From positions 34,184-98,183 of the IMG/VR virus record IMGVR_UViG_3300050821_008607: a DNA stretch of 64,000 bases; one strand, 5' to 3'. This document shows, piece after piece, positions 1-64,000 of this stretch. The notes beneath the pieces were generated by a model, which was not told where the DNA came from, did not search any database, and saw only the letters and a program-made list of their open reading frames with translations. Position numbers and translations under genes: made by a program. The DNA is from a virus. Each line of letters starts with the position of its first letter. The stretch's first letter is position 1.

Positions 1-637
1 TGACCAGGGTCGAGCGCCTGGTCACCGTTCGGATGGCGTCGGCCCCTTTGTTGTCCAGCAACTGCTGGTAGGTGACGACGCATCCGACGTACCCGGCTTT
101 GTCGTAGTCGGCCTTGTCGGACACGGGCTTGAGCTGCAGCCCGGACTTGCCAGCGGCCACGGCCCACTGGCTGCGCAGGGCGTCGGTCGGGACAACGACG
201 ACTACCCGGTCGACGAGGCCCTGGCCCAGGAGGCCCTGAGCAATGCTGATCGCGTAGTGCGTCTTGCCGGCGCCCGGGGTGGCGCTGACGAGGAAGTCCG
301 TCTTGGTGTTGGCGTAGAACGCCTCGGTGGCGCGCTGCTGCCAGACGCGGAGACCGTCCGCCATGGTGGAGCCCTTCGTAAGGTTGCAAGAAGGGCAGAG
401 CGCCTGCCCGTTGGTCATGTCGGTGGGGCCGCCGGCCACGTAGGGGATCCTGTGGTCGGCGTGCCAGCCGCCGGCGAGGGGCGTACCGCAGTTGCGGCAG
501 TGGCCGTCCGCGTCGAGGTAGAGGGCTATTCGCTCGGTCGCGTTGAACCGGCGGCGCTGGGGGGATCCGGGCTGACCGGATGGCGAGACGCGCCTGTTCG
601 GTTCGAACGGGAACAGGCTAGGGTCGGGCTTGTCCAA
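1..637 (-). CDS. HNH endonuclease-SF2 (DEAD/DEAH-like) helicase fusion, runs off left edge
   Basis: Not in the ORF track. Manual translation: CRNC...WHADHRIPYVAGGPTDMTNGQALCPSCNLTKG continues in frame into MADGLRVWQQRA...DFLVSATPGAGKT (Walker A), VVVVPTDALRSQW and VVTYQQL. Probable TTG start at 637 after GAAGGA; internal ATG at 364. Confidence 0.8.
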   Translation of the reverse strand, partial: MDKPDPSLFPFEPNRRVSPSGQPGSPQRRRFNATERIALYLDADGHCRNCGTPLAGGWHADHRIPYVAGGPTDMTNGQALCPSCNLTKGSTMADGLRVWQQRATEAFYANTKTDFLVSATPGAGKTHYAISIAQGLLGQGLVDRVVVVVPTDALRSQWAVAAGKSGLQLKPVSDKADYDKAGYVGCVVTYQQLLDNKGADAIRTVTRRSTLV

Positions 638-7759: not shown

Positions 7760-10500
7760 CAGGTGAGCCCGACCCAGAACGGCACGTTCAGGGACACGTT
7801 GCTGGCCGGGGTGATCGACCCCGCCAGTGCCGTGGTCGCGGTGCCGTTGGTGGCGAACCGGTTGCGGGCCGCCGTGGTAGTGCCGTTGTAGAGGGTGGCG
7901 TCGAGCGAGTTGTTGTTCTTCGCGAAGGCCGGTGGCGTGGTGCCGACGGAGAAGAACGCCACCCAGTAGTAGCCGGGCGGCAGCGTGAACGGGCCGCCGG
8001 TCAGGGCCATGGACTTGCGGCCGGTGGAGTTCCAACTGCTGGACTGGCTCGCGGTGGTGGCTACCAGGGTGCCCGCCGAGTTGTAGATCCCGGCGAAACT
8101 CTGGCCTGCGGTGAGGGTGGATCCAGCCGTCACGACGTACAGGACCACGTTGGTCACCGAGATGGGCTGCGGCACCAGCACCTTCACCAGGTTGACGACC
8201 CCCGACCCCGGGGCAATGCCGGTACCCGAGACCAGCACCGAGTCGAACGACCACGCCAGGTACCCGCTGTCGTTGGGCAGCGCGGTGAAGTTGGCCGACT
8301 GGATGGGGCCGCCGGTGATGGTGCCGTCGGTGGCGAAGTTCCACACACCAGTGCCGGTGTTGTTGCTCAGCGTCTGGGCCCGGTTGTTGGTGAGGATGAC
8401 GCCGCTGGCACCGTTCAGGTTGATGAACGGGTGGCCGGTGAAGGTGCCCGGGATGTCGCGGACGTCGTACTGCGAGACCTCGGTCTGCAGGCAGGTGGCT
8501 TCCAGGTAGACGTCCCATGTCGCGGCGCCGTCGGGTCCCTGCAGGTCCCTGCCGCAGGACCGGATGACGGTGTTGGTGGAGGGCCACGTCGAGTTGGTGG
8601 CCTGCCCGATGTAGAACAGGCTGTTGCCGACGGTGGCCCCGGTGAAGATGTCGTAGGACCGGCAGTTCTCGAAGACCACCCCCTGTCCGGATAGGGACTT
8701 AACGGCGCCACCGAACGGGTGCTCGAAATAGCAGTCCCGGAACGCGTTCTGCTCGTGGTAGGTACGTGCCGAGCTGCCGGAGTCGGCCTGGATCAGCACC
8801 AGGTACTGGCTGGTGTCCAGGCCCACGTTCTGGAACAGGCAGTGGTCCCAGGTCAGGTTGGCCACGTCCGCGGTGGAGATGCCCGTGACCGACCAGCCCG
8901 GAACGGACCGCGTGGCCCCGTACACGCTGGAGATGATGTTCTCGAACTTGACCCACAGCAGGGTCCCGGACGAGTTCCACACGCTCTTGTTCGCGGAGCG
9001 GGCGTAGCACACCAGGTCGTGGAAGCTGCCCTGGTTGATGTTGGCGCCGGTGAAGCAGTGGCCGCCCGTGGCGTCCAGGACCAGGTGGTCGACCTCGACG
9101 AACCCTGGCTGGCTGCTGTAGCCGGGGTGCATGTAGTTGCTGCCGAAGTCGAAGATGTCCGTCGCGGTGGTCTTCAACGTGCTGCCGTAGTCGCCGGTGA
9201 AGCGCAGGCCCACCGTGGGCTTCAGCGAGGTGCCGAGCAGGTAGGTGCCGGCCGGGAAATAGATGACGCCACGGCCGCCGGTGACCACAGTGGTGGCCGC
9301 GTTGATCGCGGCTTGAATCGCGGCACTGTCGTTGGCGACCCCGTCACCCACGGCCCCGTAGGTCTTGACGTTGAGCCAAGCGGTGCCGGAGACAGCGCCG
9401 GGGACCTGCCACGCCCCGTTGCCCGAGGCGTCGGAGGTGAAGACACTTCCGGTAGCGGCACCCGTGGGGAGCTTGAGCGTGCCCGTCACGGTGGCGTTGC
9501 CGGTGACCGTGCTGAGGACGGTGCCGCCGCCGTTGTACAGGTATCCGCCACGGGCGGACCCGGTGACGGTGATGTTGCCGAGCTCGTGCAGGGTGCCCGA
9601 GTAGATCTCGATGTTGTGCGACGGCATGTTCGTCAGCGAGTCGTTGCCGAACGTTGTCGCGTGGACCGTCAGTTCGCCGCTGGCCGACATCTGGATGTTC
9701 GGGTACGTGTTGTCCGTGGCCTGGCTGTTGGAGTGGACCATGCAGCCGACGACGGTGACCCCGGTGACCGTGTCGCCCACGTAGATGCCGTGCTTCTGGT
9801 TGCGGTCGACGCCGCAGTTGACCACGGACACCATCTGCACGCCGCTGTTGATGTTGATGCCGGTACCGGTCGAGGACCAGATGTCACAGTTCGCCAGGTG
9901 GGCGACCCAGCCGACGCCGCCGATGTTGACGCCGTCGTTCCCGGACAGGCCGATCAGGCATGCGTCCAGGCCGGTGTCGGAGCCGTTCAGGCTGACGCCG
10001 TTGTGCGTCGACTGCACGATCCACGTGCGCTGCACCTTCACGGCCTGGCGGCCGGAGCCGATCTGGATCCCGTCAAAGGCTGCGCCGGTGAGGTAGCAGT
10101 CCACGATGTGCCAGGCAGTGTCCTGGCTGGTGGCAGTGTCGAGGTGGATCAGGTCGCCACTGGAGTTGTTGGCCTTGTTGCCGTCCAGGCCCAGGTTGCG
10201 GATCTGGACGTTGGCGATACCCGCGGCACCGTGGATCAGGTGGTCGTTGAGGCCATTCTTGGCCTTGAGAACGCTGGCCTGCCCCGGCGGAGTCGGGTAC
10301 GTGTAGTTGGACTGCTCGGAGCCCATCAGTACCGTGCCGATGCGCGGCTCCAGGCGTCCCGTCAGGTACGTGCCCGGCGGGAAGTACACCGGCGGCCCGG
10401 CCGCGTTGATGGCGGCCTGAATAGCCGCAGTGTCATCCGTGACCCCGTCCCCGGCAGCCCCGTAGTCCTGCGGCGTGATGAAACCGGCAAGAAACGACAC
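7759..10500 (-). CDS. tail spike/depolymerase with two pectate-lyase-like beta-helix modules
   Basis: two copies of YGAxGDGVxxDxAAIQAAINAA...YFPxGTYL, each followed by beta-helix repeats. Confidence 0.85.
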   Translation of the reverse strand: MSFLAGFITPQDYGAAGDGVTDDTAAIQAAINAAGPPVYFPPGTYLTGRLEPRIGTVLMGSEQSNYTYPTPPGQASVLKAKNGLNDHLIHGAAGIANVQIRNLGLDGNKANNSSGDLIHLDTATSQDTAWHIVDCYLTGAAFDGIQIGSGRQAVKVQRTWIVQSTHNGVSLNGSDTGLDACLIGLSGNDGVNIGGVGWVAHLANCDIWSSTGTGININSGVQMVSVVNCGVDRNQKHGIYVGDTVTGVTVVGCMVHSNSQATDNTYPNIQMSASGELTVHATTFGNDSLTNMPSHNIEIYSGTLHELGNITVTGSARGGYLYNGGGTVLSTVTGNATVTGTLKLPTGAATGSVFTSDASGNGAWQVPGAVSGTAWLNVKTYGAVGDGVANDSAAIQAAINAATTVVTGGRGVIYFPAGTYLLGTSLKPTVGLRFTGDYGSTLKTTATDIFDFGSNYMHPGYSSQPGFVEVDHLVLDATGGHCFTGANINQGSFHDLVCYARSANKSVWNSSGTLLWVKFENIISSVYGATRSVPGWSVTGISTADVANLTWDHCLFQNVGLDTSQYLVLIQADSGSSARTYHEQNAFRDCYFEHPFGGAVKSLSGQGVVFENCRSYDIFTGATVGNSLFYIGQATNSTWPSTNTVIRSCGRDLQGPDGAATWDVYLEATCLQTEVSQYDVRDIPGTFTGHPFINLNGASGVILTNNRAQTLSNNTGTGVWNFATDGTITGGPIQSANFTALPNDSGYLAWSFDSVLVSGTGIAPGSGVVNLVKVLVPQPISVTNVVLYVVTAGSTLTAGQSFAGIYNSAGTLVATTASQSSSWNSTGRKSMALTGGPFTLPPGYYWVAFFSVGTTPPAFAKNNNSLDATLYNGTTTAARNRFATNGTATTALAGSITPASNVSLNVPFWVGLT

Positions 10501-33814: not shown

Positions 33815-34215
33815 TCGCCGCCCTCGGAGAGGATGCTGCGGAGCAGGGAGTCCGGCACAGAATCGGTCTCCTCGCGCGTCCAGCCGAACCGCGTCCAGGC
33901 TGCGTTGTAGAGCGCGGCCTTCGGGGTGTCGGCCGTCGTGCAAGTGATGTACGGCGCCGTCGGATAGACCGGCATGGTCGGGTACATCGGCGTGTACGGC
34001 ATTGTCGGAGGCGTGATCGGGGCGGGCGGGGTCCCACCGGGGCCGAGGTCGGCACAGGGCACGATGTCCCACAGGCCGCTGCTCAGCGCAGGCCACGTCT
34101 CCAGCACCTTGAGCGTGGCCTTGGCCTGCTCTTCGGTGTCGTAGGGGCCGAAAGCCTGCCGGACGCCGGACCGGTCGGACTCGGACAGGACTACAACGAA
34201 GCGGGTGATCATCAC
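33811..34215 (-). CDS. hypothetical protein
   Basis: FGPYDTEEQA motif, Pro-rich linker, coupled. Confidence 0.6.
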   Translation of the reverse strand: MMITRFVVVLSESDRSGVRQAFGPYDTEEQAKATLKVLETWPALSSGLWDIVPCADLGPGGTPPAPITPPTMPYTPMYPTMPVYPTAPYITCTTADTPKAALYNAAWTRFGWTREETDSVPDSLLRSILSEGGE

Positions 34216-42172: not shown

Positions 42173-44140
42173 TCAGGCTGCTTCTGCGTGGACGGCGAGG
42201 AGGAACACCTTCGAGGCGTCGCGGCGCCCGTTGTCGACGACCCAGCCGCGCGCCTTCCACGCCTGGATCGGGTCGGAGATGGAGGTGCGCTGATTCAGGC
42301 CGGAGCCAGCGACCATGCCAAGGAGTTCGAGGATCGTCGCGCCCTGCGCACCCCGCTGATCCAGGGCCCGCCACAGCTGCTGGTGGTTCGCGGGGACCTC
42401 GGAGCCGTCGGGAAAGCACGGCACGGACTTGAGCAGCCGCGGCTTACCGCCACCGGGCGGGGTGGCCTGTGGACCGCCACTGCCCTCGCGGGCATTGAGA
42501 CGGGCGGTCGTCACGATCTGCCCGTCGTCGATCCAGAACGCGCGCGACTCGGCCGGCTGCGTGTAGCGGCGCGAGGAGATCATGAGCTTGCCGGGGGCGT
42601 CGAGCTGGTCCAGCCGCCATCCGGCCCCGAGCGCGCCGGCACCGAGGATCAGGTTGATTGTCACGGTCTCGTTGACGCCCAGGCCGATGCGGTTCTCGTA
42701 CTGCTGGCGCGCATCGGTGCCCTTGCCACCGAACGCCCGCTCCGACGGCGACTGCGTGGCGGCGATGATGCGGATGCCCATGGCGCGCGCGACCTGGTTG
42801 AGGGTGATCAGCCGGTCGGCGACCTTCGGGGCCTGCCGGACCAGTTCGGCCAGCTCGTCTATGACCAGGAGCATCGCTGGGCCGTGGCCCCACTCGGGCG
42901 AGTCGGGGTCGGCATCGGGGTTGCCGGGGATCCACTTGCGGACCGGCTCGCCGTCCGGGCCGCGGAGGGTGGCCAGGTGCTCGCCGCGGATCTCCATCTC
43001 CCGCACGACGAACTCGACGATCGCCTCGGCGCCCTTGGCGGAGTCGGCGATGCCCTCCATGACGTCCTGCCACGGCCCGAGTTCCAGGGCGCCGGGCTTC
43101 ATGTCGATGCCGAGGATCCTGGCGTCGGGGCAGCCGGCGAGGTTGGCGATGATGACGTTCTCGACGCCGGACTTGCCGCGGTCGGTGGAGCCGGCGATCA
43201 GGACGTGGCCGTCCATGAGGTCGAGGAGGAGCGGGGAGCCGTCGGCGAGGCGGCCGATGGTCATGGGCTGCTTGACGGAGGTGATGGACGGGCCGGGCCA
43301 CGGGATGGTGTCGGCGAGGGGGTCGTTGGTCTGCATCCGCATGATCAGCTGGTTGCCCTGCGGGCCCTGCGCGAGGGTGAGCCGGCCGGGGAGCCCGAGG
43401 TTCGCGCGCAGCTGCTGCAGCTTGGCTGTGACCGCGGCCGGGCTCGTGGTCTTGCCGGGCGGCAGCGTCACCAGCGCCACCCAGCCGTTCGCGTTCGACT
43501 GGAACGCGTCGATCGCCAGCGGTGTCGCGCCGAGCGCTGCCAGCCCGCGGTAGATCGCGGTCTCCTCGACGCTGCCACCGGTGATGCCAGGGGCCTGCGC
43601 TGCCAGCCCCATGCCAGCCGGGAGGGTGCCAGCCTTGGCAGCCTGGACGTGGAGTGCCAGCCGCTCGTGCCGGTGCCGGGTCAGCCAGGGGATGTAGATG
43701 CCATAGCTGGCGGCGGTGGCAATGGCACTGACGACCAGGCTGGCAGCCGACGGCCCGGCCATGGCGTTGATGCCGACGTCGGCGAGGACCGCGGTGAGGC
43801 CGGCTCCGGCGGAGGCGAGGTGGGTGTGCTTGTGCTTGAGAGCGAGACCGGCGACGGCGCCGCTGACGGCGGTCGCGGCGCCGTAGGCGAGGCCGGTTCC
43901 GATGCCGACGCCGGACATGTTCTCGGCCCAGGCGAGGCTGGTCAGGGCGGCGTTCCCGGCGAGGGGTGCGACCTCGTAGCGGCGCCGGGAGCACCAGGTG
44001 CCGAGGGTGTTGATGCGGCTCACGACTGCTCCGGGCGGGTTGGAGATGACGTGACGTGACGTGACGTGAGGGTTCATTTGGGCTGGTCGGAGCAGTTCGG
44101 GGAGCAGGGGTGCTGACGTCACGTCACTCGATCCCTTCAT
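42173..44140 (-). CDS. traB: FtsK/SpoIIIE-family TraB-like DNA translocase
   Basis: N-terminal TMs, HVLIAGSTDRGKSG (Walker A), IDMKPG..EL, LLVIDELAEL (Walker B), ARAMGI..IAATQSP, C-terminal wHTH-like domain. Confidence 0.85.
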   Translation of the reverse strand: MKGSSDVTSAPLLPELLRPAQMNPHVTSRHVISNPPGAVVSRINTLGTWCSRRRYEVAPLAGNAALTSLAWAENMSGVGIGTGLAYGAATAVSGAVAGLALKHKHTHLASAGAGLTAVLADVGINAMAGPSAASLVVSAIATAASYGIYIPWLTRHRHERLALHVQAAKAGTLPAGMGLAAQAPGITGGSVEETAIYRGLAALGATPLAIDAFQSNANGWVALVTLPPGKTTSPAAVTAKLQQLRANLGLPGRLTLAQGPQGNQLIMRMQTNDPLADTIPWPGPSITSVKQPMTIGRLADGSPLLLDLMDGHVLIAGSTDRGKSGVENVIIANLAGCPDARILGIDMKPGALELGPWQDVMEGIADSAKGAEAIVEFVVREMEIRGEHLATLRGPDGEPVRKWIPGNPDADPDSPEWGHGPAMLLVIDELAELVRQAPKVADRLITLNQVARAMGIRIIAATQSPSERAFGGKGTDARQQYENRIGLGVNETVTINLILGAGALGAGWRLDQLDAPGKLMISSRRYTQPAESRAFWIDDGQIVTTARLNAREGSGGPQATPPGGGKPRLLKSVPCFPDGSEVPANHQQLWRALDQRGAQGATILELLGMVAGSGLNQRTSISDPIQAWKARGWVVDNGRRDASKVFLLAVHAEAA

Positions 44141-51540: not shown

Positions 51541-51927
51541 CTACTCGGCGTCGGAAGTACGGCGCCGCTGGAGCGCCTCGACCAGAGCCAACAGGATCGG
51601 GGCGTCAGCCGGGTCGATACCCCATGCTTCGGCGGCCTCGTACACGTCCGGGGCCCGGGTCGGCGTGGGGGCGTCGGGGAAGTCGTTGGGCTCGGCATCG
51701 CCGGAGCGGATCAGCATTTCGGACACCTCGATCCCGAGCACTCGCGCGAGGCGCAGCTGCGATCCGACGTCGGGCATGGTCTGGCCGTTGAAGGTGCGGC
51801 CGATCTGCGTCGAGGAGATCCCGGTGGCCTTGGCGAGGGCGGCTTGTGCGCCGCGCGCGCCGTCGAGGTCGTAGCCGGCGGCCAGGGCTCGGTGGCGTAG
51901 CCACTCAGCGAAGGTCAGCTCGGGCAC
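51541..51927 (-). CDS. CI-like XRE repressor
   Basis: FAEWL...GAQAALAKATGISSTQIGRTFNGQTMPD...LARVLG; RBS GAGGAG; divergent from cro-like gene. Confidence 0.85.
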   Translation of the reverse strand: MPELTFAEWLRHRALAAGYDLDGARGAQAALAKATGISSTQIGRTFNGQTMPDVGSQLRLARVLGIEVSEMLIRSGDAEPNDFPDAPTPTRAPDVYEAAEAWGIDPADAPILLALVEALQRRRTSDAE

Positions 51928-51947: not shown

Positions 51948-52101
51948 GCGATATCGCGGCGATATCGCCTGGTGAGCGTAGCGTGCGCGCTCCCCCCTTC
52001 GTCAGGCACACGCCGCTTATGAGCCACTCCTGACATTGTTGCGCGCGCGCCCCGTTGGGCATAGGATTACTGCATGCGCGCCACTACTGGGCACGCATGC
52101 A
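51948..52101. promoter_or_regulatory. genetic switch: operators and rightward promoter
   Basis: tandem palindrome GCGATATCGC (51948, 51959); TTGCGC-17-TAGGAT (52039-52067); inverted repeat TGCATGCG...CGCATGCA (52071-52101). Confidence 0.6.
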
Positions 52102-52135
52102 ACTTCCATGTGTTTCCCCTGCCCAGGAGGCGATC

Positions 52136-52369
52136 ATCGCGACCTTCCGACTCCGCGCCGACGTGCTGCGCGAAGCCGCCGCCGAACGCGGAGACCCCAG
52201 CATCCGCCGCATCGTCCGCACCACCGGCATCGACCGGTCCGTCATCTACCGCAACCTCAAGGGCCGTTCCGAACCCTCGCTCGGAACCCTCATGCGCTTT
52301 CACGCCTGCTACGGCATCCACGTCGAAGACCTCGTCGCCGAAGCCGAGTCCACTGTCGACGCCAACTGA
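52136..52369 (+). CDS. Cro-like HTH protein (ATC at the expected start position)
   Basis: ATFRLRADVLREAAAERGDPSIRRIVRTTGIDRSVIYRNLKGRSEPSL; AGGAGG 5 nt upstream of ATC; alternative ATG at 52097. Confidence 0.75.
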   Translation: MATFRLRADVLREAAAERGDPSIRRIVRTTGIDRSVIYRNLKGRSEPSLGTLMRFHACYGIHVEDLVAEAESTVDAN

Positions 52370-52408: not shown

Positions 52409-53317
52409 GTGAGCATCGACGCCATGAAGTGGGTGATGGAGATCGCCCCGGCGTTTCCACCGCACCTCTTCAGCACCCTCACGGGGCTGGCGTGGCACGC
52501 CGACACGAAGGGACGGGGAAGCTACCCGTCCGTTGCCCGACTGGCCGCATACGGCTGCAAGGCACCCCGATCCGTCCAGCGCGACCTGAGGGAACTGGAG
52601 GAGCTGAAGATGATCCGCCTCGGTAACCAGAGCCTGGCCGAGCACATCCCGGCAGACCGCCGCCCTCCGGTGTACGACCTCGCGGTTGAGCGGGTGGTGG
52701 ACGGCGGCACTCGTGTTCCGCCGTGGTCCGCATCCGGTCGGCCGAAGCGAACAGCAGAACGGGGTGCCGTGGATGACACCCCGAACGGGGCGACACCAGC
52801 GTCACCCCGAAAGAAGAACGGGGTGACATCCACGACGGAACGGGGTGACGCCCATGGTTCGAACGGGGCGACGTACACGTCACCCAATCCTTCCTTTGAA
52901 CCGTCAGGTGAACCTCTCTCTCCCGACGCGCCCGAACCGACCGCCCCGGAGCCTCCCGCCGCCAGCGAGAGAGAGACGGAGGCTGCGCCCGAAAAGCCAA
53001 CCGCAGCACAGCGGGCCGTCCGCTCCAGTGGCGTCGTTTCCGCCGCCGAGGAGCAGGCGTTCATCGACTGGTGCACGGCCAAGTTCGACATCAAGGGGCC
53101 GGGCTGGTGGCGGACCTGCGCCGCCGACATCCCCGAGCACGCCGAGACGTGGCGGGCCAGCCACGCCAGCAGGAGCAGCCCCGCCTCCGGCCTGCCGGAC
53201 TGGTGCACCCGCTGCAACGACGGCGCGGAGGCTGCGCGCTACAACCCGAAGTTCCGCAAGACCTCGGACGGGGCGCTCTGCCGCGACTGTCATCCCGACG
53301 CCGCATCAGCGGCCTGA
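52409..53317 (+). CDS. phage replication initiator (HTH N-terminus)
   Basis: MSIDAMKWV...LAWHAD..G..SYPSVARLA...RSVQRDLRELE; internal iterons. Confidence 0.85.
   Translation: MSIDAMKWVMEIAPAFPPHLFSTLTGLAWHADTKGRGSYPSVARLAAYGCKAPRSVQRDLRELEELKMIRLGNQSLAEHIPADRRPPVYDLAVERVVDGGTRVPPWSASGRPKRTAERGAVDDTPNGATPASPRKKNGVTSTTERGDAHGSNGATYTSPNPSFEPSGEPLSPDAPEPTAPEPPAASERETEAAPEKPTAAQRAVRSSGVVSAAEEQAFIDWCTAKFDIKGPGWWRTCAADIPEHAETWRASHASRSSPASGLPDWCTRCNDGAEAARYNPKFRKTSDGALCRDCHPDAASAA
52757..52885 (+). repeat. iterons, putative replication origin
   Basis: GAACGGGGYGMC at 52757, 52783, 52816, 52838 and 52861, plus inverted GTCACCC. Confidence 0.8.
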
Positions 53318-53329
53318 GCAAGGATCACC

Positions 53330-54478
53330 ATGACCACCACGACCGGCTTGACCCTGGACGACCTGTTCCCACCGGAGGCGCTGGCCGCCGCGCTGGAGGC
53401 GCAGCACGTCACCCGTAAGCAGCACCCCGACCTGCCGCTGCACATCCTCACCTACACCCGGGAGTGCCAGTACGGGCACATCTGGACGCCCGTCACCATG
53501 CAGTGCCGCGGCCTGATAGCGGACGCCGGGGGCCGGATCGTCGCGTTCCCGTTCCCGAAGATCTTCGTGACGGCGATGCACGGCGTCCACGACTTCGCCC
53601 CGCCGCTGCCGGTCGACGAGCCGTTCGAGATCTTCGAGAAGGCCGACGGCAGCCTGATCATCGTGTTCCACTACGACGGCCACTGGCACGCCGCCTCCAA
53701 GGGCAGCTTCATCAGCGAGCAGGCCGACTGGGCGCAGCAGTGGATCGACGCCGCCGACCTCAGCCGGCTGGACCCTCGGCTCACCTACCTCGCCGAGGCG
53801 ATCTACCCGGCGAACCGGATCGTGTGCGACTACGGGCCCCGCGAGGACCTCGTGCTCCTGGCCGCGTACCGGCCCGCTGACGGGTCGGAGGAGCTGCTGT
53901 CGACGGTTGCCCCGCACTGGGCTCCGATCGGGTCGGTGATTCGCTCCTGGGGCCTGGACGACGACGTCAGCAAGCTGGAGGCCCTGGCCGCGGCGAGCGT
54001 CACGCTCGGCGGTGACGAGGTCGGCGGGACGGAGGAGGAGGGCTACGTCATCCGCTTCGCGTCCGGCCAGCGCGCCAAGGTCAAGCTGTCCGCCTACCTG
54101 ACGCTGCACAAGCTGTTCACCGGCACGAACGAGCGCACGATCTGGGAGGTGCTCGCCTCCGGCCAGGACCCGGCCGTGCTCTTCGACACCGTCCCGGACG
54201 AGTTCGCCGACTGGGCCCGCGGCATTGCCGACCGACTGCGCGCCGAGCACGGCCGACTGGTCCGCGAGGCTGCCAGCGCCTACGCCGACATCGTCGACAT
54301 CCAGCTGGGCACTCTCGACTTCACGCGCAAGGACTTCGCGATCGCCGCCGCCAAGTCCGACTGCCGCTCCGCACTGTTCCTGCTCCTCGACAAGCGCGAC
54401 GACGCCGTCAGGGCCTGGGCGTGGAAGCAGATCAAGCCCCGCGGCGACAAGCCCTTCAAGAACGACGAGGACAACTGA
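53330..54478 (+). CDS. T4 Rnl1-like RNA ligase
   Basis: CRGLI, PFPKIF, motif I EKADGSL, ASKGSF.SEQA, EAIYP.NRIV, EGYV, KVK. Confidence 0.9.
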   Translation: MTTTTGLTLDDLFPPEALAAALEAQHVTRKQHPDLPLHILTYTRECQYGHIWTPVTMQCRGLIADAGGRIVAFPFPKIFVTAMHGVHDFAPPLPVDEPFEIFEKADGSLIIVFHYDGHWHAASKGSFISEQADWAQQWIDAADLSRLDPRLTYLAEAIYPANRIVCDYGPREDLVLLAAYRPADGSEELLSTVAPHWAPIGSVIRSWGLDDDVSKLEALAAASVTLGGDEVGGTEEEGYVIRFASGQRAKVKLSAYLTLHKLFTGTNERTIWEVLASGQDPAVLFDTVPDEFADWARGIADRLRAEHGRLVREAASAYADIVDIQLGTLDFTRKDFAIAAAKSDCRSALFLLLDKRDDAVRAWAWKQIKPRGDKPFKNDEDN

Positions 54479-54480
54479 CC

Positions 54481-55398
54481 ATGCCCACGATCCACTTCAC
54501 GACCGGCCTGCCCGCCAGCGGCAAGACCAGCTGCGCCACCCGGCTCGTCCGCGACGCCAAGGGCAGCCTGCGCCGCATCAACCTCGACGACATCCGCGCC
54601 ATGCTCGACTCCGCCTACGGGCAGTCCGTCTGGACCCACCGCCACGAGGCGACCGCCCAGAAGATCCAGAAGGAGGCACTCCGGGCCGCGCTGTCCGACG
54701 GCTTCGATGTGATCGTCGACAACACGCACCTGACGCCACGAATGCCGGGCCGGCTGAAGTCGGTGCTCTCCGAGTTCGACGACCTCGCCTTCGAGGTCCA
54801 CGACTTCACCGGCGAGGACGTCGAGGACTGCATCTTCCGCGACGGCGGTCGTGCGAAGCCCGTCGGCGAGGACGTCATCCGCAAGCTCTGGCAGCGGCAC
54901 CAGTCCGCGACCAAGGGCGGTTGGCGGCTGACCGCGGAGTGGCTGGCGGACCGGTTCGTGCCGACGCTCTACGTGGCGGACGCCTCGCTCCCGGCCGCTG
55001 TCCTGGTGGACATTGATGGGACGCTCGCGCTCAAGGGCGACCGTGGCGTGTACGACTTCGAGCACTGCGGCCGGGACCACCTCAACAAGCCCGTCGCCCA
55101 TGCGGTCGGGCTGCTCCGCAAGGCCGGGGATCAGATCATCCTGCTGTCCGGCCGCGGCAGCGAGTACCGGATGCAGACCCTCGCGTGGCTTGTCGAACAC
55201 GAGGTGTGGTTCGACGAACTGCACATGCGCCCCGAGAAGGACACCCGCCGCGACGACGTCGTGAAGGCCGAGCTGTTCGACGCCCATGTCCGCAACCGGT
55301 TCAACGTCCGTATGAGCCTCGACGACCGGGACCGCGTGGTCTCGCTCTGGCGCCGGATGGGCCTGCCGTGCTGGCAGGTCGCACCCGGCAACTTCTGA
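54481..55398 (+). CDS. polynucleotide 5'-kinase/3'-phosphatase (T4 PseT-like)
   Basis: GLPASGKT, RINLDDIR, VDNT; HAD DIDGT, LSGR, DDR..VV..WR. Confidence 0.92.
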   Translation: MPTIHFTTGLPASGKTSCATRLVRDAKGSLRRINLDDIRAMLDSAYGQSVWTHRHEATAQKIQKEALRAALSDGFDVIVDNTHLTPRMPGRLKSVLSEFDDLAFEVHDFTGEDVEDCIFRDGGRAKPVGEDVIRKLWQRHQSATKGGWRLTAEWLADRFVPTLYVADASLPAAVLVDIDGTLALKGDRGVYDFEHCGRDHLNKPVAHAVGLLRKAGDQIILLSGRGSEYRMQTLAWLVEHEVWFDELHMRPEKDTRRDDVVKAELFDAHVRNRFNVRMSLDDRDRVVSLWRRMGLPCWQVAPGNF

Positions 55399-61080: not shown

Positions 61081-63671
61081 AGCCGCCGCTGGACACCGAC
61101 CTGCACCTGCCCGCCGTGCTCTCCCGCGAGCAGGCCGCCGAACGCCTGCTGGAGCTGCTGGCCGACCCCGACGATGCTGACCGGATCTGGGACGAGATCA
61201 TCGGCTCGCTGTACGACTCCCGGCAGTGGAGCTCCCAGTGGCGGAACGGCCACTGCCGACACTGCCGCGTAGAGCACCCGGCGTGGTGGGCGCAGCGTCA
61301 CCCGGCCGACCGGCAGTGGCCCGGCCACCGCACGTACTGTCCTCGCTACGTCGGCCCACTGGAGCACCACGAGACCGGCGGCCACCACGCCTTCATGGGC
61401 TGGCGGCAGGGCTGCTCGTGCGGGCAGTCCTGGCTGCAGTACGACGACGAGGGCAACAAGCAGACCTGCCCCGATGCCGCGCTGGACTGGCGCGGGCCGC
61501 GACCCGAGGCGGGGCAGTGACCGAAGCGACTGAAGACCCGACCTGCCTGTGCTGCACCCTGGGCAACCACACCGAGCCCTGCACCTGCGACGGCGGCGAC
61601 TGCTGCCACCCCGAACAGCACCGCGAGGAGACGACGTGACCGACGTGCCGCCCCAGTTGCTCACCACCCCCGGCCCGCACCCGATCTCAGCGGTCCGCCC
61701 CCAGACCCCGACCATCGTCATCCCGCGCGGCGCCCCTCAAGCCCTCGTCACCATTCACCCCGACGGCACCATCGAGTTCGGGCCCGGCTACACGCCGGAG
61801 GGCGCGGCGGCCCTGTTCTGGGATGCGCTGCGGCAGGTCGCGGCCGGGAATCCGATCGCCGAGTTCGGCGCCCCGCTGTCCCGGCGTATCGACGCCGAGA
61901 TGGCTGGGCTCCTGGCCCGCGCCGAGGAGGCCGAGGCCATGCTCGCCGCCGTCCGGGCGAAGGCCACCGCTGCCGGACTGCACGGCATCCTCGCGCTGCT
62001 CGACCCGCCGCCGCCCGCATGCCCGCGCTGCCACGGGCGCGGGAAGGTCCCCGACTGGTCGCAGGGCCTGGATCCGATCTACGGCGAGCCCAAGGGCAAG
62101 CCGTGCCCCGACTGCCAGGAGACGCCAGCGTGACCGATCCCCAGCTCCCCGCCGAGCATGCCGGGTACGCGATCCGCTGGGAGCCGTGGCAGACACGGGC
62201 CGCGTGCGGGCGCGACCTGGTGCCGCAGGACTGTAGCCTCTGCGGCCAGACGACGCCCCACGAGCGCACCCTCGGCCGCGTAGACGGCTCCACGGCCGTC
62301 CGGGCCAGCGCGCTGCGGTGCATGCTCTGTGGCGGCGTCCGGGCGCTCTGGCGCGAAGACCCGGTGCCGGGTGCGGCGAGGGGAAAGCTGGTGCCGCTGC
62401 GCACCGGCGCGCACGTAGAAGCATTCACCGCCGAGGAGACCCCAGTATGACCGAGCCGTTCAGCCTCACCACCCGCACCCCGGCCGGGAAGATCCGCTAC
62501 GCCGTCGAGCAGCTGTCCGGCGTGCACGCGCAGTCCTCTGCCGGGCAGACGAAGCTGATCGCCGTACGGATGATCCTCGACCGGCTCGCCGACGACCTGG
62601 ACGCCGGGACGATCCCCGCCACGCCGATCTGCGGGGACGTGTTCCAGTCCGGCATCACCGACCGGGCGCAGGGCCCGTGCCTCAAGCCGCCCGGCCATGA
62701 TCCGGCTGACCCGTGGCATCAGGACGACACCGGGTGCCGCTGGAGGCCGACCGGAGACGCCCCGTTGCGCACCCCCGCAACGCCCGAGGCCACGCCGTTG
62801 CCTACCCAGGCAACGCCCCCCGACTGCCGCTGGCCCGGATGCCTGCCGGAGGCGGAGCAGCAGCAGCTCGCCGACGACATCGGCGCGGACATGCGCGGCG
62901 AGGCGACGGAGCCGGGGGACGATCCGCAACCGGGGTGCGGGTGCGTCGACCGGGGCGTCGACGTTGAGCCGTTGCCTACCTCCGCAACGCAGGCCAGCGC
63001 CTGCGCCTGGGTGTTGCGCGCCGTCGTGGCCGCCCCGACGCCGGAGGACGCCGAGCGCTGGACAGGCGGCATCCGGGACCTGGTGCTCGCCGAGTTCGGG
63101 GACTCCATGGGGCTCGACATCAGCATCGGGCCGGTGGCGGCGGACCGTGGCACTGTCGGTGAGTCGTGATCTGCGGCGTCGCGAACGAGGACGGATACCG
63201 GGTCGTCTGCCAGGACGAGGACCCGCACCACCGCAGTCCACACCTCGCGGCAGGCGGCGGCCCCGGGATTGTCGGCGTCGCCTGGTGTACGCCACCGGAG
63301 CCGTGCCGGGGAGGCATGTGCGCCGGGCCGTGCCACGCGCTCGACGGGCGCAGTGCTGGCGGTGGGACGTGACCGCCGCCGTACGCGCACTCCTGGCGGC
63401 CGTGTACACGCCGCTGCTCGTCGCGGCCACCGTCCCGCCCGTGACCGTCGTGACGCTGCTCCTGGTGCCCGCCTACAGCTGGCAGGGCCCGCTGCTCGCC
63501 TTCGCCCTCGGCGGCGTGTGCGGGGCGGTCGGCGGACTGGCCGAGGAGCACGTGCTGGACTGGGCGGTGCCGCAGCTCACGCTGGCGTTCACCCCGCTGC
63601 TTCCGCCGTCCGGCGGAACCCCCGAGACCGGCGGGCAATCCCGCCCGCAAGATGGAAGGATCGCACCATGA
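61077..63671 (+). other. run of coupled hypothetical genes, mostly Cys-rich (61077-61520, 61517-61639, 61636-62133, 62130-62450, 62447-63169, 63166-63372, 63369-63671 membrane)
   Basis: GTGA/ATGA overlaps, most with a GGAG RBS. Confidence 0.6.
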
Positions 63672-63832
63672 ACGCTACGAAGAACCGCACCGAGGCCGCT
63701 CCCGGCCGCCGCCCGCTGGCCCGGCTCGCCGACGACAAGATGCGCGCCGGCACCACCCCGCTGCTCGGGCGGCTGCTGCGCGAGACCGGGCGCAAGTCGA
63801 TCGAGGTCGCGGCGTTCGCCAGCTCCGTGTGA
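63668..63832 (+). CDS. FxSxx-COOH-type RiPP precursor-like peptide
   Basis: 54 aa, PLARLA...LLGRLL...VAAFASSV-stop; RBS GGAAGGA. Confidence 0.72.
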   Translation: MNATKNRTEAAPGRRPLARLADDKMRAGTTPLLGRLLRETGRKSIEVAAFASSV

Positions 63833-64000
63833 CCGTGCCCGACCCACAGGCGCTCCCTGGTGCACCACTGCCCGGGGAGCGTCTGCCTGTGCCGTGCGAG
63901 GGGCCCGGCTGCGGCAGGCTGCTGACGGACCCGGAGTCGGTGCTGCACCGTCGTGGTCCGCGGTGCCGGGCCGAGTTCGCCGCGCGGGGCTTCGACGTGG
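63829..64000 (+). CDS. DUF6011-like Zn-finger protein, truncated by window edge
   Basis: C...CGRLLTDPESV..R.GPRC. Confidence 0.6.
   Translation, partial: MTVPDPQALPGAPLPGERLPVPCEGPGCGRLLTDPESVLHRRGPRCRAEFAARGFDV

Follow-up and report, generated by a model that had tools for sequence, protein, structure and literature searches.

We analysed a window of viral DNA (the whole stretch considered here, 64,000 nucleotides, positions 34,184 to 98,183 of IMG/VR virus record IMGVR_UViG_3300050821_008607) and found near its end a short gene, fxsA, whose predicted product is an FxSxx-COOH precursor of a peptide made on ribosomes and modified after translation (RiPP). A sequence-only reading of the window had picked out this open reading frame (ORF), and its account of the gene held up. 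GC content at codon positions 1, 2 and 3 is 0.69, 0.59 and 0.96, matching the coding signature of a genome of ~70% GC, and 17 homologues end in the same F-x-S-x-x pattern; GC at the third position (GC3), the ribosome site (Table 1) and the conserved homologues confirm the predicted 54-residue frame as a real gene. Its ATG shares an ATGA with the stop codon of the preceding gene. An antisense ORF that shares the third positions of fxsA looks like a shadow frame. The predicted peptide carries the leader motifs RRPLARLADDKMR and LLGRLL, followed by the core TGRKSIEVAAFASSV (63785-63829), with Phe50 at 63815-63817 and Ser52 at 63821-63823. It terminates in VAAFASSV-COOH, hence in an exact F-x-S-x-x-COOH ending (FASSV), which is found in just 2 of 1,240 phage ORFs of at least 40 residues. 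The N-terminal segment of the peptide is not hydrophobic.

The window takes up the final 64 kb of a 98,183-bp record from a soil metagenome that has a 98-bp direct terminal repeat and is rated 100% complete; because its end coincides with the end of the record, nothing lies beyond it but the record's own start. The absence of a radical S-adenosylmethionine (SAM) gene from the window, already noted from the sequence, extended to the remainder of the record: profile searches of the complete 98,183 bp returned no match to TIGR04269 (FxsB) or PF04055 (general radical SAM), and tblastn with FxsB of Streptacidiphilus carbonis gave no match in the phage or in any of the phage loci described below. 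The profiles of FxsT (NF040586) and FxsC (NF040588) also found nothing in the phage, the NF040588 negative being the weaker because its control gave no match. A related provirus in S. carbonis, 96% complete, likewise had no match to the profiles of FxsB, radical SAM, FxsT or FxsC (TIGR04269, PF04055, NF040586, NF040588). By these searches, the phage fxsA is an orphan, without FxsB, FxsT or FxsC.

We found that the phage peptide is closely related to an FxsA that is encoded next to its maturase. It is 75% identical (33 of 44 positions, over residues 13-54) to the FxsA of S. carbonis locus L005, which lies 32 nt upstream of an 812-residue FxsB with a HExxH domain (L005 10168-12606). A full-length alignment was also obtained with the FxsAs of three other genomes, each encoded directly before FxsB. 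Residues L20, A21, L33, R35, L37, VAAF and S52 are invariant between the phage peptide and those three FxsAs. The core TGRKSIEVAAF[G/A]SSV is common to phage and cell, the cellular copies having G in some cases and A in others; phage-type copies differ slightly from the cellular trio in having K for A in LADD[K/A]MR and an NF motif before GRR. These alignments support the claim, made from the sequence, that the peptide is an FxSxx-COOH precursor, and the genomic context of the S. carbonis homologue, between FxsT and FxsB, settles its identity as FxsA. On this evidence the phage peptide is a true full-length FxsA homologue with leader and core intact, and no loose mimic.

Profile searches placed the peptide in the same families. 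In an NCBIfam search, the hidden Markov models (HMMs) TIGR04268 (FxSxx-COOH) and NF040585 (SjiA family) ranked first, aligned to the C-terminal end. Scored against the FxSxx-COOH precursor HMM, however, the peptide stayed under the cut-off, as does the cellular FxsA of L005. Among the 18 members of the family alignment (the phage peptide and its 17 homologues), NF040585 matched 18 and TIGR04268 matched 16, below cut-off and always at the C-terminal end; the best member reached E values of 1.6e-4 and 4.4e-5 against the two HMMs. Because the authenticated cellular FxsA of this subfamily in L005 also fails (21 bits against 75), the cut-offs under-score this subfamily and do not discriminate within it. 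A Pfam search with the phage peptide gave no match.

The homologues, each 55-64 residues long, came from a search of 5.8 billion proteins; 13 of them are Logan/JGI sequences, and the gene context was verified for four phage and two close cellular copies. All 18 family members end in F-x-S-x-x and stop exactly two residues past the Ser, with F and S invariant, so that the terminal FxSxx is conserved in phage homologues, a point on which the sequence-only reading had staked its case. The start M, R14, L17, L20, D23, L33-G-R35, L37, the T40-F50 block and S52 are also invariant across the alignment. Pairwise ratios of non-synonymous to synonymous substitution rates (dN/dS) were 0.04-0.42, with a proportion of synonymous differences (pS) of 0.3-0.6, close to saturation, in two gap-free blocks and leaving out pairs with L019, a phage contig whose leader block could not be aligned. 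Differences in the last 15 fxsA codons are nearly all synonymous. A tblastn search with the peptide found no match in GenBank phages or PLSDB plasmids. These comparisons show the identity, orphan state and conservation of fxsA.

Four phage contexts were verified: the present record, the S. carbonis provirus (L003/L004; contig 16, 98.7 kb), L017 (a 15.7-kb contig whose shared genes are 95-100% identical to those of the present phage) and L019 (a 67-kb soil contig). All four have fxsA as the 3′ end of the same rightward block, where it immediately precedes convergent leftward genes. The cassette of membrane protein gene, fxsA and DUF6011 gene is common to the present phage, L017 and L019, whereas the neighbours in provirus L004 differ. 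In S. carbonis, the FxsA of the provirus is 89% identical (40 of 45) to that of the host, but the synonymous sites are ~50% diverged; because this divergence separates two copies in one genome, the phage copy is old and separately maintained, and no recent pick-up. A small tree grouped the three cellular copies (support 87/89) apart from a group of 16 rows (82/80) that includes the four phage copies of verified context; for so short a protein this support is modest.

L019 contains a second 54-residue ORF (10111-10275), ATGA-coupled to its fxsA, with a GC3 of 0.93 and the ending FDSAL-COOH. The same ending occurs in the FxsA encoded next to the second S. carbonis FxsB (L007 2803-3006, minus strand). 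The second L019 peptide had no database homologue and no NCBIfam match, and its alignment to this S. carbonis FxsA2 covers only the last 7 residues; two distinct types of FxsA may be present in L019. When IMG/VR was scanned for exact matches to one codon variant of VAAF-x-S-S-[V/I]-stop, the result was two further viruses of ~65% GC, a complete record of 113 kb (L031 7099-7260, minus strand) and one of 108 kb (L032 3403-3543, plus strand), with FxsA-like genes ending in VAAFNSSI that scored 28.5 and 19.4 bits against TIGR04268 (cut-off 28). Neither record has a radical SAM gene. A scan of IMG/VR with a second pattern variant gave no match, and a scan with a wider alignment confirmed the S. carbonis provirus alone, the confirmation having used the first sequence only. 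As judged from these predicted genes, orphan FxsA is recurrent in unrelated phages.

The cellular loci show what the phage gene has been separated from. In S. carbonis NBRC 100919, contig 27 (L005) encodes an FxsT with a KGGVGR ATPase and an FxSxx_TPR region (859 bits), a 63-residue FxsA, an FxsB to which an aKG-HExxH hydroxylase domain is fused (571 bits when the genome was searched), an acetyltransferase resembling AAC(3), an FxsC with TIR-like N-terminal and C-terminal domains, and a second FxsT. In five further genomes of the genus, more distant FxsA relatives lie just before FxsB or in loci of the order FxsA-TIR-FxsC-FxsT-hydrolase-FxsB. The cellular fxs loci lack the membrane gene, and 560-830 bp of low-GC3, apparently non-coding DNA precedes their fxsA. 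A small open frame ending in FTSCI-COOH in L005 (3661-3888, plus strand), which gene scoring did not call, is a possible further precursor. Genes for alpha/beta-hydrolases resembling prolyl aminopeptidase recur beside cellular fxs loci (L005 454-3240, L018 3-284 and L028 2851-3804); these enzymes are leader peptidase candidates.

FxsB scored above its cut-off in 23 of 23 species genomes from the host genus; copy numbers ranged from one to three. With such a base rate, co-occurrence of FxsB with the phage in a host is uninformative, and by the same census the enzyme is reliably available to phages of this genus. The sequence-only reading had offered use of the host maturase in trans as one option; because every host-genus genome carries FxsB, and given that none was found in the phage or its record, it is the natural reading, and the predicted dependence of the phage peptide on host FxsB in trans is strongly indicated. 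In its own precursor, MscB of the FxsB family joins Phe C4 to Ser C-beta (review, PMC11002830). A preprint of October 2026 describes FxsC as an active TIR protein and FxsT as a fusion in which ParA is joined to sensor repeats and an inactive TIR, predicts that they form an apoptosis-type antiviral TIR-ParA system of Actinomycetota linked to FxsAB, terms the system functionally uncharacterised and leaves phage copies unmentioned (bioRxiv 10.64898/2026.10.19.760177). Searches of the open-access literature gave no report of an FxsA carried by a phage.

The surroundings of fxsA in the phage agree with its description, from the sequence, as part of an early operon: the gene sits downstream of a Cro-like gene that opposes a CI-like repressor (Table 1). 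The same operon holds, directly 3′ of the replication initiator, an RNA ligase and a polynucleotide kinase (53330-55398); they form a T4-type tRNA-repair pair and suggest a counter to anticodon nucleases. It also holds a processive-synthase-like glycosyltransferase that may be a surface-modification gene, a DUF6221 protein and many small unannotated genes. At its 3′ end, four genes up to and including fxsA are joined by 4-nt overlaps, and there is no visible promoter gap directly at fxsA. The Cys-rich protein of this chain fills an apparent 200-bp gap and is 85% identical to its L017 counterpart, where the DNA is 90% identical. The DUF6011 gene begins 2 nt past the fxsA stop and, the record being circularly permuted, continues across the end of the window at the record's start; its product is conserved after fxsA in L017 (84%) and L019 (61%). 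Searches of Pfam, PHROGs and the ESM Atlas found nothing for the membrane protein or for the 128-residue protein downstream, and profile searches found no recognisable receptor domains among the neighbours of fxsA. A scan for promoter and terminator consensus sequences, which does not cover Streptomyces promoter types, found nothing. A hairpin at 63845-63890 (-41.9 kcal/mol, z -2.2) was considered as a terminator and set aside, as it lies within the conserved DUF6011 reading frame.

Table 1. Position of fxsA and associated features in the window (record coordinates where stated).
Feature	Position	Strand	Basis or remark
CI-like repressor, divergent	51544-51927	-	
Cro-like helix-turn-helix protein, head of the rightward operon	52097-52369	+	
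Replication initiation protein, same operon	52409-53317	+	
RNA ligase	53330-54478	+	phrog_562, 172 bits
Polynucleotide kinase	54481-55398	+	phrog_505, 276 bits
Family-2 glycosyltransferase (GT2), processive-synthase-like, 468 residues, same operon	55602-57008		
Gene heading the 3′ chain of overlapping genes	62447-63169	+	
Cys-rich ORF, 68 residues	63166-63372	+	GTGA overlaps with both neighbours
Hydrophobic (membrane) protein, 100 residues	63369-63671	+	stop overlaps fxsA start (ATGA)
Shine-Dalgarno-like GGAAGGA	63654-63660	+	7 nt 5′ of the ATG, within the 3′ end of the upstream gene
fxsA, orphan, predicted 54-residue FxSxx-COOH precursor	63668-63832	+	sequence read, homologues, alignment
DUF6011 small protein, 72 residues	63835-64000, into record start	+	27.2 bits against a cut-off of 26.6
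Helical protein, 128 residues, last of the operon	record positions 168-554		

Elsewhere, the record has the genes of a tailed phage: those for a portal-NUDIX-MuF fusion, the large terminase, the tape measure protein and a tail spike. An FtsK/SpoIIIE (TraB-like) translocase is encoded at 42173-44074 (minus strand), and the one similarity at the DNA level was to 91 nt of Streptomyces phage ZL12. The translocase and this weak match to a plasmid-phage are hints of a plasmid-phage lifestyle.

To account for an orphan fxsA in such a setting, we favour, with a probability of roughly 0.45, the explanation that a lineage of ~98-kb temperate actinophages keeps a functional FxsA whose peptide, matured by host FxsB, serves as a supply of antidote against FxsC/FxsT. 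The gene would be transcribed with the Cro-headed operon, after derepression or on infection, if the lambda paradigm applies, and its translation would be coupled to that of the small membrane-protein gene through the 4-nt start/stop overlap. The FxsA leader would be recognised by the FxsB radical SAM/SPASM maturase of the host, which would link C4 of Phe50 to the C-beta of Ser52; hydroxylation of the peptide by the fused HExxH domain is also possible. The matured product would be the same peptide as the host's. It is plausible, at somewhat less than even odds, that this peptide is a ligand that keeps the suicide system of FxsT (ParA, inactive TIR, TPR) and FxsC (active TIR) at rest; by supplying the ligand from its own promoter, the phage would keep infection or host shut-off from setting the system off.

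Since phage and cell have an identical core, the product should equal the host's own peptide rather than a dominant-negative form, and the phage would therefore gain by adding more of the normal product. That this effect on the host system runs against defence, instead of favouring it or serving as a signal, is offered as a hypothesis. A counter-defence role for the peptide as an inhibitory ligand of FxsT/FxsC fits the place of fxsA deep in the Cro-headed operon beside the putative tRNA-repair enzymes, the lack of a visible promoter gap of its own, and the possibility that one phage carries two FxsA types. We put forward a more specific version with considerable doubt, namely that cyclophane-stapled FxsA is a labile ligand through which the TPR arm of FxsT senses an 'all-clear', and that actinophages carry a subfamily-matched fxsA, sometimes two in tandem, from which host FxsB would make the antidote. 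TPR proteins often clamp C-terminal peptides.

Several observations weigh against the antidote explanation. Both curated HMM scores of the phage peptide are below cut-off (14.4 against 28 bits and 13.2 against 75 bits), and the close FxsA subfamily is present in one of ~185,000 species genomes, that of S. carbonis. The host genus is only the likely one, and acceptance of the phage leader by the FxsB of other species is hypothetical. The timing of fxsA expression is inferred from gene order, and internal promoters are possible; that fxsA is coupled to a membrane-protein gene might instead indicate export. Finally, in the only published model, that of the preprint, the FxsAB peptide serves as an alarm signal or an antiviral molecule rather than as an inhibitory ligand (bioRxiv 10.64898/2026.10.19.760177).

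That published model agrees with another use of the phage gene, in lysogenic conversion or signalling, which we consider unlikely. The phage peptide, matured by host FxsB, would itself be an antiviral molecule or a diffusible alarm that protects the lysogen or kin hyphae from other phages, or that senses or steers neighbouring cells, and the coupled membrane protein would help in its release. The phage is of temperate type, given its CI-like repressor and the related provirus in S. carbonis; fxsA is coupled to the small membrane protein in three of the four phage loci; and the GT2 synthase of the same operon could be a conversion gene. However, fxsA is no stand-alone moron: it belongs to an overlapping chain far down a Cro-headed operon, and the lambda paradigm would have such an operon silent in lysogens. 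The phage also shows no signal sequence, exporter or protease, and the membrane gene is absent from provirus L004.

The peptide could alternatively act as a sponge that binds host FxsB (or FxsT) unproductively and so blocks maturation or sensing of the host FxsA. This idea is close to the mimic or decoy proposed in the sequence-only reading, of which the likeness to FxsA stood, whereas the notion of a mere look-alike did not, since leader and core are intact and the core is identical to that of cellular FxsA. The retained leader motifs make binding to FxsB plausible, and the small leader differences of the phage-type copies noted above would suit such a role. Yet the core matches cellular copies down to the cross-linked F and S and bears no mark of non-modifiability, and a normally processed substrate would add product, not remove it. 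We therefore regard a sponge as improbable, and a decoy that jams through an altered core as unlikely, the same product being more probable. We think it more improbable still that fxsA is a passenger without a role in the phage, or that its likeness to FxsA is irrelevant to its function. The sub-cut-off HMM scores and the neighbours, which all lack an assigned function, would allow this; against it stand the recurrence of an intact start, leader and core in four or more phage contexts at dN/dS values far under 1, the 75-89% identity to FxsB-adjacent FxsA, and the orphan FxsAs of unrelated phages.

Fxs loci are present in every host-genus genome searched; for the FxsB family, the chemistry has been worked out, but no biological role has been assigned. 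As the gene content indicates, phage fxsA is a RiPP precursor that has been separated from its pathway and is carried by a virus, and a stand-alone, selectively kept precursor gene beside putative tRNA-repair enzymes is genomic evidence that the peptide matters in phage-host conflict. If the antidote explanation is true, it describes a new way for a virus to disarm immunity, through a borrowed peptide-modifying enzyme of the host. The more specific 'all-clear' version, if true, would make FxsA the first RiPP to serve as an immune checkpoint, and the phage gene the first phage counter-defence that feeds a precursor to a host maturase. A gene of 165 nt offers a simple handle for a test.

Among known systems, the phage peptide is nearest to the FxsA/FxSxx-COOH triceptide precursors and their FxsB-family enzymes (MscB; TIGR04268, NF040585, TIGR04269). 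It is of the same length class and shares the leader motifs R-R-x-L-x-x-L-A and L-x-R-V/L-L and the end VAAF-x-S-S-V/I-COOH. Unlike cellular FxsA, it has no FxsB, HExxH hydroxylase, FxsC or FxsT in its genome, lies downstream of a Cro-like gene, is coupled to membrane and DUF6011 proteins, and scores below cut-off. Compared with the FxsC/FxsT TIR-ParA systems, the cellular twin of the peptide is encoded inside exactly such a locus, whereas the phage has the peptide gene alone. The arbitrium peptide AimP is likewise a small phage-encoded peptide, used in communication, that needs host processing; unlike it, phage FxsA shows no signal sequence, has no recognised phage receptor gene and is a homologue of a host RiPP precursor. 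A parallel in logic is the substitution by phages for host antitoxins, reportedly by T4 Dmd for RnlB/LsoB and by the pseudo-ToxI RNA of PhiTE, in which a phage copy or mimic of a small host component could quiet a suicide module. The phage component here differs in being a RiPP that would need a host enzyme, with a presumed inhibitory role; as expected of an antidote, it is a homologue of a component encoded in a predicted abortive-infection-type TIR-ParA locus.

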